The notes beneath the pieces are model-generated. The model ran no database searches. It worked only from the letters and a program-made list of their open reading frames with translations, and was not told where the DNA came from. 32,000 nucleotides of DNA from Vibrio vulnificus CMCP6 (GTDB lineage: Bacteria > Pseudomonadota > Gammaproteobacteria > Enterobacterales > Vibrionaceae), in the NCBI RefSeq assembly GCF_000039765.1, contig NC_004460.2:1170001-1202000 (forward strand). The letters are read 5' to 3'. The position numbers were made by a program, and so were the translations under genes. Positions 21,666 to 23,387 of the stretch are shown one piece after another; position 1 is the first letter of the stretch, and each line of letters opens with the position of its first letter.

Positions 21666-23387
21666 TCAGCGAGGCCATTTGCCTGCATTCACCGCAATCA
21701 CATACTGGTGCGTACCGGGTTCGATACGCCCTGTGATGGCAGGAACACTGGCGTGGGGATAAAGCAAATTGGTGTTCGGCGCACATGGGTAAACGCGCGT
21801 TTGTCCTTCACCTTGTAATAAAATCATTTCACTGAACAATCGTTCTGAGCTCACCTTCGCTGGTTGAATCACCTGATGGCTAAACCACGCCGACCAGCAA
21901 TCCACCGCGTGTCCCGTCATGACAAAATTCAGTTCGATGTCGGTGGTGATCTCATGGCGGCGGATTTCACCTCGTTCAGACCACTGCTGACGCGTTTTCA
22001 CCACGCAACCTTCAAATGGTTGCCACAGCGAGACCAAGGCATCACCATCTCGATAACTGTCAGTGTTGCGGTGACGGCTAAACCATTGCCCCGTCTGCGG
22101 ATGGGCAAATGCGACGATGTTGTCACCCGCCCAACCTTGATCGAGCCAACGGGTTGATTCGACACACAAACCATGCGCCGAGCTATAAGCGAACTTGCTG
22201 TATTTGTCTTCACAGTGGCGCAGCTCATTGGCTGGAGCTGCGTTGGTCAGCAGATAGCTGCCTTGGCGCCGTACCATTTGATGGTGTTCGCCAATCCAAG
22301 TCGCTGGTAACTGACTGGCCAAAGGCTGTTCGGCTGCACGCCAAAACGGATGCTCTTCAGCAAGATTGAGGGCATTAAAGGCTTTAAGCGCCAGCATCGG
22401 TGATGCATAACTGGTGTAAAACTCACTGCTTAAGAGATTCGGGTAAGCAAAACCGGGCAACAATTGCGCTTGTTGATCGCAAATCGGTTGCTTTGCCCAC
22501 CAACGCATGGTTTGCATCCAGTAGTTTTTGGCCGTCACGATATCCATGTCTGGGTGATCGTGTCGGGCAAGCTCTGCCCAAAAAGCGGCGCCTGCAAAAC
22601 GGTAGTTGAGCGAGCGGCCATAGCATAGCGGCTGTCCGTCATCACCAAACCAATACTGGTAGCCATGGGAAAACGCCACCGCTCGCGCCAACAAGCGTTG
22701 GCACAAATCACCTTCGCCTTGCTGCCAACGCACATACACCAATGCATAAAGTTGAAAAGCAAACGGATTGTAATAATCGAGCGCACCGCCTTCGCCGTCT
22801 TGATACCAACCATCATCGAGATAGAGCGCATCAACAAAGGCGAGATCATCGGCCAGCACTTGCTCGTTAATCTGTTCGCCCAACTGCTGCAAGGCACTGA
22901 GGATAAGAATACGAAACCAACGCCAGTTGTTCGGAGGGAGTTGTAAATCCGTCACCGCGCGCAGCCAATCCACCAAGTGTTGCTTTTCTTGTGAACAAAG
23001 AGGCAGCCAATAGCACTCCTTTGCATCCACCAGCGCAACGGCAATGGAGGCCATTTCCACCACACGTTGATCATAGTTTTTCGGCTGCTGCCAATAGTGT
23101 TCTGAATCTGGATCGCAACCCGCCACCACCATCTGACGTAAGGTGTGATGCGCTTGGTTGAGCTCATGCGTTGCAGGTGCCGCGCCCCATAGCAACCGAC
23201 AAAGGTGCTCTAGCTTCGCCACTTCGGTGGGGTAATGCGCGGCACTGTTGTACGTCGGGCGATCACCACTCTGCTCGGTTAATACCGGAAGTTGACGCTG
23301 CACAATCTCATTCAACAGTTGCAGCGTTTCCGCTCGACGGCTAAATGTCACATCCTGCTTCACCAATTGATTGAGGCTGATGGCCAC
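21666..23387 (-). CDS. DUF2264-family protein (uncharacterised alpha/alpha-barrel-like; possibly GH154-related), cytoplasmic
   Basis: 573 aa. Motifs I associate with DUF2264: ...GAAHYP...LWG.AP..., DDGWYQDGEGGALDYYNPFAF, YGRSLNYRFAGAAFW. The GTG start has a weak SD and there is no signal peptide. The family call is from memory, not from a search. Confidence 0.7.
   Translation of the reverse strand: MAISLNQLVKQDVTFSRRAETLQLLNEIVQRQLPVLTEQSGDRPTYNSAAHYPTEVAKLEHLCRLLWGAAPATHELNQAHHTLRQMVVAGCDPDSEHYWQQPKNYDQRVVEMASIAVALVDAKECYWLPLCSQEKQHLVDWLRAVTDLQLPPNNWRWFRILILSALQQLGEQINEQVLADDLAFVDALYLDDGWYQDGEGGALDYYNPFAFQLYALVYVRWQQGEGDLCQRLLARAVAFSHGYQYWFGDDGQPLCYGRSLNYRFAGAAFWAELARHDHPDMDIVTAKNYWMQTMRWWAKQPICDQQAQLLPGFAYPNLLSSEFYTSYASPMLALKAFNALNLAEEHPFWRAAEQPLASQLPATWIGEHHQMVRRQGSYLLTNAAPANELRHCEDKYSKFAYSSAHGLCVESTRWLDQGWAGDNIVAFAHPQTGQWFSRHRNTDSYRDGDALVSLWQPFEGCVVKTRQQWSERGEIRRHEITTDIELNFVMTGHAVDCWSAWFSHQVIQPAKVSSERLFSEMILLQGEGQTRVYPCAPNTNLLYPHASVPAITGRIEPGTHQYVIAVNAGKWPR

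Follow-up and report, generated by a model that had tools for sequence, protein, structure and literature searches.

A probable cytoplasmic beta-D-glucuronate 4,5-dehydratase: a two-domain GH154-family protein of Vibrio vulnificus genomic island XII

Introduction

BT_3677 of Bacteroides thetaiotaomicron, the founding member of CAZy family GH154, was reportedly first described, by Cartmell et al. in Nat Microbiol in 2018, as a beta-glucuronidase. BD-beta-Gal, a metagenomic member of the family, is said to have been reported as a beta-galactosidase by Hameleers et al. in N Biotechnol in 2024, and P29_PDnc, from the ulvan pathway of Formosa agariphila, reportedly entered the literature as an oligosaccharide dehydratase with Baumgen et al. 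in J Biol Chem in 2021. Here we analyze VV2_1105 (CMCP6 numbering), a gene for a GH154-family protein on chromosome 2 of Vibrio vulnificus CMCP6, within a stretch of 32,000 nucleotides (contig NC_004460.2, positions 1,170,001–1,202,000), which is referred to as the window and in whose own coordinates all positions are given.

Alvarez et al. (J Biol Chem 2025; PMC12269599) studied BcGDH, which belongs to GH154 and is encoded in a chondroitin locus of Bacteroides caccae (PUL25, CGC64_04070; PDB 9O4U, 9NWF). The protein had no reproducible glycosidase activity on aryl glycosides, where contaminating Escherichia coli activity was considered, and released no glucuronic acid (GlcA) from chondrosine; a beta-galactosidase activity differed from one preparation to the next and was in the end not counted among the properties of BcGDH. 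Instead, BcGDH caused a time- and substrate-dependent rise at 232 nm and formed a product whose mass, 336 Da, fits dehydrated chondrosine, and its 4,5-unsaturated product was consumed by the GH88 enzyme of the same locus. BT_3677 likewise dehydrates methyl beta-glucuronide. Ten active-site alanine mutants of BcGDH were all inactive, and the mechanism proposed from a substrate complex, in which Y229 takes H5, R285 stabilizes the carboxylate and Y289 protonates O4, resembles that of Tyr-based lyases. A glycosidase-type arrangement of carboxylates is absent from the crystal structures of BcGDH and 8OI4 and from an AlphaFold 3 model of BT_3677, and the authors proposed a new classification of GH154, as a family of dehydratases that work together with GH88 or GH105 (PMC12269599). 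In a 2026 haloarchaeal study, a minimal gene set for the breakdown of glycosaminoglycans (GAG) comprises lyase, sulfatase, GH88, GH154 as glucuronate dehydratase, and an ATP-binding cassette (ABC) transporter (PMC13260240).

The gene order of the window matches genomic island XII of V. vulnificus chromosome 2, where VV2_1105 was listed as 'hypothetical, COG4289' together with a solute-binding protein (SBP; VV2_1104), arylsulfatases (VV2_1106, VV2_1108 and VV2_1109), an anaerobic sulfatase-maturing enzyme (anSME; VV2_1107) and a chondroitinase (VV2_1110) (PMC3091676). Human serum was reported to induce part of the island (PMC4260858). The gene is currently annotated in V. vulnificus and its relatives only as 'hypothetical' or 'DUF2264 domain-containing', and a literature search found no paper characterizing VV2_1105 or any Vibrio GH154. 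A preliminary description, made from the sequence without database searches, had presented the product as an uncharacterised protein and a candidate missing glycosidase, in a family with a weak beta-glucuronidase as its only reported activity and with members almost unexplored. For the family, this picture was fair before 2024–2025 and is now outdated by the two studies above (PMC12269599, PMC13260240) and by the precomputed Pfam labels on the contigs examined, which name PF10022 'BcGHD'.

Results

VV2_1105 encodes a leaderless DUF2264/GH154 protein

The open reading frame (ORF) of VV2_1105 begins with GTG, and an in-frame TAG two codons upstream leaves no room for an earlier start; the V. vulnificus homologs annotated by NCBI are also 573 aa long, with 100% coverage. 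Pfam assigned residues 18–355 to PF10022 (DUF2264; E = 4.1e-91; 306 bits, cutoff 25), in a match that spans profile positions 2–352 of 353, and residues 377–564 to PF20938 (DUF2264_C; E = 4.3e-13). The former match is far beyond chance and confirms the family proposed in the preliminary description; a search of NCBIfam with the same protein returned no matching model. Within the first 40 residues the most hydrophobic 10-residue stretch scored 0.83 on the Kyte-Doolittle scale, compared with 2.3 for the signal peptide of the neighboring SBP, and the N-terminus was helical in the AlphaFold2 model. The protein is thus predicted to be leaderless and cytoplasmic, and ORF, Pfam and hydrophobicity agree with the 573-aa leaderless DUF2264-type protein first described. 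Many V. vulnificus contigs encode an identical protein, the corresponding 90%-identity cluster bears the name of V. vulnificus, and the best species-representative match was in the sister species V. floridensis (98%).

Active-site residues of BcGDH are conserved in VV2_1105

The VV2_1105 protein was aligned with 36 homologs (37 sequences in all, 29–97% identity), and the profile derived from this alignment was compared with the PDB. The profile matched 8oi4 at 1.7e-44, 9o4u at 1.4e-40 and 9nwf at 5.6e-39, and phmmer with the VV2_1105 sequence reached 9o4u at 1.6e-14. The chains returned carry the names 'Beta-D-glucuronic acid dehydratase' (9o4u, 9nwf) and GH154 'beta-galactosidase' (8oi4); the title of the last of these bears out the initial equation of DUF2264 with CAZy GH154.

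All ten BcGDH active-site residues whose alanine mutants are inactive are present in the VV2_1105 protein, and nine of the ten are invariant across the 37 sequences. The motifs DYYNPFAF and YGRSLNYRFA, already pointed out from the letters, occur at residues 204–211 and 256–265 and hold the proposed catalytic base, arginine and acid, because Y206, R258 and Y262 align with BcGDH Y229, R285 (carboxylate/oxyanion stabilization) and Y289 (proposed acid at O4), respectively. This Tyr/Arg/Tyr set is kept in 37/37 sequences, and the 9nwf chain has an alanine exactly in the R258 column, which corresponds to the published R285A complex. In the Asn-Asn-Trp segment, N154, W155 and F158 are invariant and N153 is Asn in 28 of the 37 sequences. 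Invariant residues of the C-terminal domain are K395, Y396, K398, Y401, D422, W455, R476 and N538, and the motif DKYSKFAYS (window 22182–22208) within this domain is invariant as well.

The predicted fold is that of GH154/BcGDH structures

The AlphaFold2 model of VV2_1105, built on the 37-sequence alignment (predicted local distance difference test 91.4, predicted template modeling score 0.92), consists of a helical N-terminal domain and a beta-sandwich C-terminal domain. Comparison of this model with known structures, as the preliminary description had suggested, placed GH154/BcGDH structures at the top of the Foldseek results (E from 1.7e-14 to 4.7e-13, with 8oi4 at 1.7e-14 and 9o4u at 2e-13; probability 1.00; target-normalized template modeling score 0.70–0.75). 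Next came two-domain uronate lyases of families PL17, PL15, PL33, PL35, PL12 and PL8, together with dermatan sulfate epimerase; E-values of the PL15/PL17 and PL33/PL35/PL12 matches were about 1e-9 to 1e-6, at an identity of 9–12%. The epimerase and the matched lyases all abstract the uronate C5 proton. The Pfam scan of VV2_1105 found no lyase domain and thus no sequence membership of a PL family.

DUF2264 genes are frequently linked to GH88 genes

The neighborhood survey covered 80 loci from species-representative genomes plus six others, 78 of the loci having a called DUF2264 ORF; ORFs were called, clustered by all-against-all BLASTP, and the recurrent clusters annotated. A GH88-like gene was found within 10 kb of the DUF2264 gene in 42 of the 78 loci (54%), lay on the DUF2264 strand in all 42, and was at most 300 bp away in 33. 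A heparinase II/III-like gene (~600 aa) was present in 24/78 loci, and one or the other of these two gene types in 50/78. In a haloarchaeon, the DUF2264 homolog is followed directly by GH88 among sulfatase genes; a metagenome contig has the order GH88-GH2-DUF2264 after an ABC importer; and in Uliginosibacterium an SBP_bac_5 importer, a PL5-like lyase gene and a sub-threshold GH88-like gene precede the DUF2264 homolog. VV2_1105 therefore shows each DUF2264/GH154/BcGDH family feature that was examined, namely profile, homology, fold, catalytic and GlcA-binding residues, and GH88 linkage.

Both V. natriegens (72% identity) and Enterovibrio (41%) keep the order DUF2264-SBP-permease-permease-ATPase next to genes for anSME and sulfatases; in Enterovibrio, GH88, GH112 and PL8 genes are packed around the DUF2264-importer block. 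A GH2 gene occurs near the DUF2264 homolog in V. natriegens; GH2 positions are 21088–21722 in locus L008 and 6190–7986 in locus L011.

Importer operon and divergent promoter region

The gap between VV2_1105 and the SBP start is exactly 67 nt, as first described, and a terminator scan of this gap found no terminator-like site; the corresponding spacing is 67 nt in V. natriegens and 68 nt in Enterovibrio. The ABC importer is probably co-transcribed with VV2_1105. The V. vulnificus contigs examined share a 953-bp stretch (18726–19678) that separates the SBP gene from the first permease gene; it contained no ORF of at least 65 aa, no Rfam match and no notable repeats. At this junction V. natriegens has 113 bp and Enterovibrio 79 bp.

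VV2_1105 and sulfatase 1 had been thought to share an operator-rich promoter. The two genes are indeed divergent and three KdgR-like matches lie between them, but the repeat scan of the 194-bp region found no direct repeats (one imperfect inverted repeat was seen), and sigma-70-like matches in the promoter scan were at chance level. Rfam at gathering thresholds gave no matches in the whole window. The palindrome searched for was TGAAAYNNNRTTTCA, with up to two mismatches allowed; the window contained 12 matches against 6.6 expected, and 12 were reached in 3 of 100 shuffles, a modest excess. The three matches in the divergent region are at 23450–23464, 23483–23497 and 23556–23570. The intergenic region of anSME and sulfatase 2 contains a perfect copy of TGAAAYNNNRTTTCA (26379–26393). 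Copies with one mismatch are the last of the three just named, upstream of sulfatase 1 and VV2_1105, and that at 10172–10186, in the SulP/porin intergenic region; further matches are at 10836–10850 and 5107–5121, and the best matches lie in promoter regions. The window holds no IclR/KdgR gene; in the locus of Enterovibrio, a gene of the IclR family adjoins PL8. The distribution of these sites suggests control by a repressor that responds to 2-keto-3-deoxygluconate and is encoded elsewhere.

Table 1 Positions of VV2_1105, its domains and motifs, and other features of the window
Feature	Position	Strand	Basis
VV2_1105, DUF2264/GH154-family gene, 573 aa	21666..23387	-	ORF, Pfam, PDB homologs
N-terminal alpha-helical catalytic domain, residues 18-355	22323..23336	-	Pfam envelope, AlphaFold2 helices, Foldseek
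E60...R64, equivalent to BcGDH E74/R78 (substrate-binding)	23196..23210	-	both invariant in 37 sequences
N153-N154-W155-x-x-F158, equivalent to BcGDH N176/N177/W178/F181	22914..22931	-	profile-to-PDB alignment
DYYNPFAF motif, residues 204-211	22755..22778	-	Y206 invariant, equivalent to BcGDH Y229 (proposed base abstracting H5)
YGRSLNYRFA motif, residues 256-265	22593..22622	-	R258 and Y262 invariant
Y324, equivalent to BcGDH Y354	22416..22418	-	invariant, alignment
C-terminal beta-sandwich domain, residues 377-564	21696..22259	-	PF20938, strands in AlphaFold2 model
Opp/Dpp-type ABC importer downstream of VV2_1105	14852..21598	-	Pfam, N-termini
SBP_bac_5 with signal peptide	19679-21598	-	Pfam; VV2_1104 in PMC3091676
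Two ABC permeases	17718-18725, 16555-17715	-	Pfam
Fused double ATPase of the ABC importer	14852-16552	-	Pfam
Divergent intergenic region VV2_1105/sulfatase 1, 194 bp, 28% GC	23388..23581	none	three KdgR-like sites
Sulfatase 1, leaderless, Cys-type	23582..25048	+	Pfam; CTPSR motif; nearest solved relative exo-2-O-sulfatase 6pt4 1.7e-52
anSME, anaerobic sulfatase-maturing radical S-adenosylmethionine enzyme	25071..26282	-	TIGR03942 502 bits (cutoff 349)
Sulfatase 2, leaderless, chondroitin 4-O-sulfatase type (BT3349-type)	26444-27937	+	6s21 endo-4-O-sulfatase 1.3e-166
Sulfatase 3, leaderless, N-acetylgalactosamine-6-O-sulfatase type	27934-29400	+	6s20 8.6e-151
PL8 chondroitin/hyaluronan lyase with CBM96	29477..32000	-	Pfam; start beyond window edge
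OprD/ChiP-like outer-membrane porin with signal peptide	10914..12353	+	PF03573; weak ChiP match; OprD gene in Enterovibrio locus
Extra GalT and GalE copies	6051-7181, 7129-8145	-	
KduD, 2-dehydro-3-deoxy-D-gluconate 5-dehydrogenase	5159..5920	-	NF006528 466 bits (cutoff 430), TIGR01832; equivalog level
GH88 unsaturated glucuronyl hydrolase (UGL), leaderless	3810..4994	-	PF07470; 6e-74 to Bacillus UGL 1vd5; 3e-63 to streptococcal UGL
GH112 1,3-beta-galactosyl-N-acetylhexosamine phosphorylase (galacto-/lacto-N-biose)	1557-3755	-	TIGR02336 1328 bits

Other genes of the island

The remaining genes of the window (Table 1), among them PL8, sulfatases, anSME, GH88 and KduD, agree with the earlier reading of the neighborhood as a chondroitin sulfate locus. 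None of the three sulfatases has a signal peptide, and both whose motif was read (1 and 3) are of the Cys type; since the sulfatases are leaderless and adjoin the anSME gene, desulfation of chondroitin oligosaccharides appears to be cytoplasmic. The close homolog of sulfatase 2 has been described as endo-acting on 4-O-sulfate, a mode of action that one would not expect where only imported oligosaccharides are met. A leaderless PL8 lyase was considered and rejected as an artefact, because the window stops 57 nt short of the PL8 start; in V. vulnificus contigs the full-length protein has 858 aa and an N-terminus, MKKTRFLLPFVFPALLAAPMSLA, that is a typical signal peptide. Together, these genes outline what, by sequence, is a chondroitin sulfate utilization island with predicted extracytoplasmic depolymerization and predicted cytoplasmic desulfation and disaccharide cleavage. 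The OprD/ChiP-like porin is a probable uptake channel for GAG oligosaccharides, and a SulP permease gene is also present in the window.

GH112 and GalT genes are kept among the chondroitin genes of Enterovibrio (locus L009, 1315–2364 and 6211–8397); possible substrates of GH112 in a GAG locus are mucin-type O-glycans on proteoglycans or galactosides of the linkage region. After the ABC ATPase gene, at a distance of 91 nt and in the same orientation, comes a methyl-accepting chemotaxis protein gene (12814–14760, minus strand). This arrangement is kept in V. natriegens (L008 17808–19811), and the position of the gene beside the importer hints at a coupling of chemotaxis towards GAG fragments with their import. 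Past this gene (window 12354–14760 compared with 20671–21722 in loci L001, L005 and L007), some V. vulnificus contigs carry TM_HPP and TetR genes, whereas the window and locus L006 have the OprD-like porin instead; the island therefore exists in at least two structural variants. ORF scans of the gaps at 1–1556 and 9858–10913 revealed no convincing gene and no regulator, and Pfam analysis of the window genes revealed no beta-N-acetylgalactosaminidase gene.

Discussion

VV2_1105 as a probable glucuronate dehydratase

We consider it probable that VV2_1105, a predicted cytoplasmic protein of two domains from the DUF2264/GH154 (BcGDH) family, acts as a beta-D-glucuronate 4,5-dehydratase. Family, fold, catalytic-residue conservation, compartment, operon position and GH88 linkage, as presented above, carry this reading, and the dehydratase chemistry would follow from homology to the two assayed enzymes. 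From the surrounding genes we infer a chondroitin- or hyaluronan-type substrate and likewise the order of the step relative to desulfation. The preliminary description was right that the lyase/GH88 route cannot handle saturated GlcA at non-reducing ends, and this metabolic gap is real; since BcGDH and BT_3677 dehydrate rather than hydrolyze, however, the gap would be filled by dehydration followed by GH88 and not by a beta-glucuronidase.

Several points weigh against this reading. Dehydratase activity was shown for two family members, BcGDH and BT_3677 (PMC12269599), neither of which is a close relative of VV2_1105; identity to BcGDH is only 21–24%, and VV2_1105 carries a C-terminal domain that BcGDH does not have. 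On a chondrosine mimic BcGDH was very slow (kcat/Km 0.54 per min per mM), its authors caution that the inactivity of the mutants may partly stem from the poor substrate, and they call the family-wide reclassification 'potential' (PMC12269599). BcGDH Y175, which contacts galactosamine, aligns with P152 of VV2_1105 in a variable column, so that a BcGDH-type aglycone subsite, which bears on specificity and does not define the family, was not found, and specificity for aglycone or sulfation cannot be transferred from BcGDH. On the genomic side, the GH88 gene of V. vulnificus is about 17 kb from VV2_1105 and does not adjoin it; 28 of the 78 surveyed loci had neither a GH88 nor a lyase-like gene within the available DNA, some contigs being short; and 17 of the 78 also had a gene of GH2, a family with beta-glucuronidases among its members, which raises the question of why a dehydratase and a GH2 enzyme would both be needed.

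Alternative activities

The two-domain architecture, which is also that of the exo-acting PL15/PL17 oligo-uronate lyases and PL33/PL35/PL12 GAG lyases, would suit a beta-eliminase working on another substrate, either as an exo-lyase with a sugar leaving at O4, such as non-reducing-end N-acetylgalactosamine from odd-numbered oligosaccharides, or as a dehydratase of another terminal uronate, such as iduronic acid, 2-O-sulfated GlcA, or GlcA on the Gal-Gal-Xyl linkage region. In its favor are the unconserved aglycone-contact residue, the different aglycone preferences of BT_3677 and BcGDH, the missing beta-N-acetylgalactosaminidase gene, a divergent partner that is 2-O-sulfatase-like, and the location of some homologs beside PL5-like or heparinase II/III-like genes and not PL8. 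We nevertheless regard such an enzyme as unlikely, in view of the low identity to the lyases (9–12%) and the lack of Pfam lyase domains, and because VV2_1105 retains every residue by which BcGDH holds the terminal GlcA and both assayed members use terminal GlcA with a free 4-OH.

A true exo-beta-glucuronidase that hydrolyzes saturated GlcA from imported GAG fragments or from the linkage region, as first proposed, would meet a real metabolic need, and GH154 is filed among the glycoside hydrolases in CAZy, with PDB 8oi4 titled a GH154 beta-galactosidase. This chemistry is nonetheless quite improbable: BcGDH showed no hydrolase activity and released no GlcA from chondrosine, BT_3677 dehydrates, and glycosidase carboxylates are missing from the structures (PMC12269599). 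VV2_1105 instead retains the Tyr/Arg/Tyr triad of a beta-elimination mechanism as its invariant residues, and the same-strand GH88 adjacency in 33 loci would be needless if GlcA were simply hydrolyzed. A function outside GAG catabolism, whether as a beta-galactosidase-type enzyme for the galactoside module of GH112, GalT and GalE in the same island, in line with the activity reported for BD-beta-Gal, or as a mere passenger of the island, is very improbable, since the gene heads the importer operon beside sulfatase and anSME genes in three Vibrionaceae lineages, the beta-galactosidase activity of BcGDH preparations was inconsistent and not retained, and the GH88 linkage is strong.

Comparison with described systems

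As a probable dehydratase, VV2_1105 resembles BcGDH (PMC12269599) in its PF10022 domain, helical fold and ten active-site residues, in its location in a chondroitin locus that contains GH88 and relies on sulfatases, and in the predicted role of priming saturated GlcA for GH88. The two differ in that BcGDH is a periplasmic single-domain protein of ~400 aa with a signal peptide, whereas VV2_1105 has 573 aa, no leader and an added beta-sandwich; BcGDH is moreover a tetramer in which a neighboring subunit contributes to the active-site rim (Y401). The loci differ as well, with PL35 as partner lyase and SusC/D uptake in B. caccae, in contrast to PL8 and an ABC importer in V. vulnificus. Going by its description in PMC12269599, BT_3677 is closer in architecture, with two domains, the second of which lies near the active site and supplies side chains there; it is described as periplasmic, from an arabinogalactan locus, and active on methyl beta-glucuronide but inactive on chondrosine. 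BD-beta-Gal (PDB 8OI4) gave the best profile match and the best fold match and conserves the active-site residues, but has a single domain, and the activity reported for it is that of a beta-galactosidase; in the 2025 study its active site is regarded as belonging to a dehydratase (PMC12269599).

The haloarchaeal GAG loci (Front Microbiol 2026, PMC13260240) likewise combine a cytoplasmic GH154 with GAG lyase, sulfatase, GH88 and ABC transporter, and two-domain homologs from haloarchaea share 29–30% identity with VV2_1105; these genes are archaeal and plasmid-borne, their function being likewise inferred. P29_PDnc, as far as PMC12269599 describes it, also dehydrates a saturated terminal uronate for an unsaturated-uronyl hydrolase, but it is stated there to have no sequence relation, works with GH105 and acts on ulvan. 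The two-domain uronate lyases (PL17 Alg17c, PL15, PL33, PL35, PL12 and PL8) share the combination of alpha-toroid and beta-sandwich and a Tyr-based C5/C4 beta-elimination, and differ in their leaving group, which is a glycosidic oxygen and not water.

The cytoplasmic two-domain form found in Vibrio may constitute a functionally distinct branch of dehydratases, in which the C-terminal domain with DKYSKFAYS would replace the subunit-donated lid of BcGDH and the specificity for aglycone or sulfation would differ; we put this forward tentatively, as the less expected outcome. If it holds, V. vulnificus could import and use saturated, possibly sulfated, chondroitin or hyaluronan oligosaccharides made by host hyaluronidases without its own lyase, and the virulence-associated island XII would be tied to feeding on host-generated GAG fragments.

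Proposed pathway

In the pathway that we propose, the exported PL8 lyase, and possibly host hyaluronidases, would cut chondroitin sulfate or hyaluronan outside the cytoplasm. Host hyaluronidases are endo-beta-N-acetylhexosaminidases, whose products have a saturated GlcA as their non-reducing end. Oligosaccharides would pass through the OprD-like porin and then the SBP_bac_5 ABC importer, and cytoplasmic 4-O-, 6-O- and probably 2-O-sulfatases, matured by anSME, would strip the sulfate. Fragments with a 4,5-unsaturated uronate could go directly to GH88, whereas a saturated GlcA at the non-reducing end, as expected at original chain ends and on hydrolase-made fragments, would block this enzyme. 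On such ends VV2_1105 would act with Y206 as the base that takes H5, R258 stabilizing the carboxylate and Y262 as the acid, so that the 4-OH leaves as water and the product would be the same unsaturated uronate that the lyase generates. GH88 would then free 4-deoxy-L-threo-5-hexosulose uronate for catabolism by KduD and related enzymes.

Meaning for island XII and the GH154 family

As a probable GH154 dehydratase VV2_1105 is a predictable further case, and no new kind of biology is involved, because both the dehydration mechanism and the chondroitin role were published in 2025. VV2_1105, so far 'hypothetical', gains a specific, testable function, and the reconstruction of the chondroitin sulfate pathway of island XII, an island linked to the clinical clade, is completed from the exported PL8 lyase, the porin and the ABC importer through the cytoplasmic 2-O-, 4-O- and 6-O-type sulfatases to the dehydratase, GH88 and KduD. 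The survey, in turn, provides independent genomic support for the recently proposed pairing of GH154 dehydratases with GH88, as more than half of the 78 species-level loci of the two-domain branch had a same-strand GH88-like gene, mostly as a direct neighbor.

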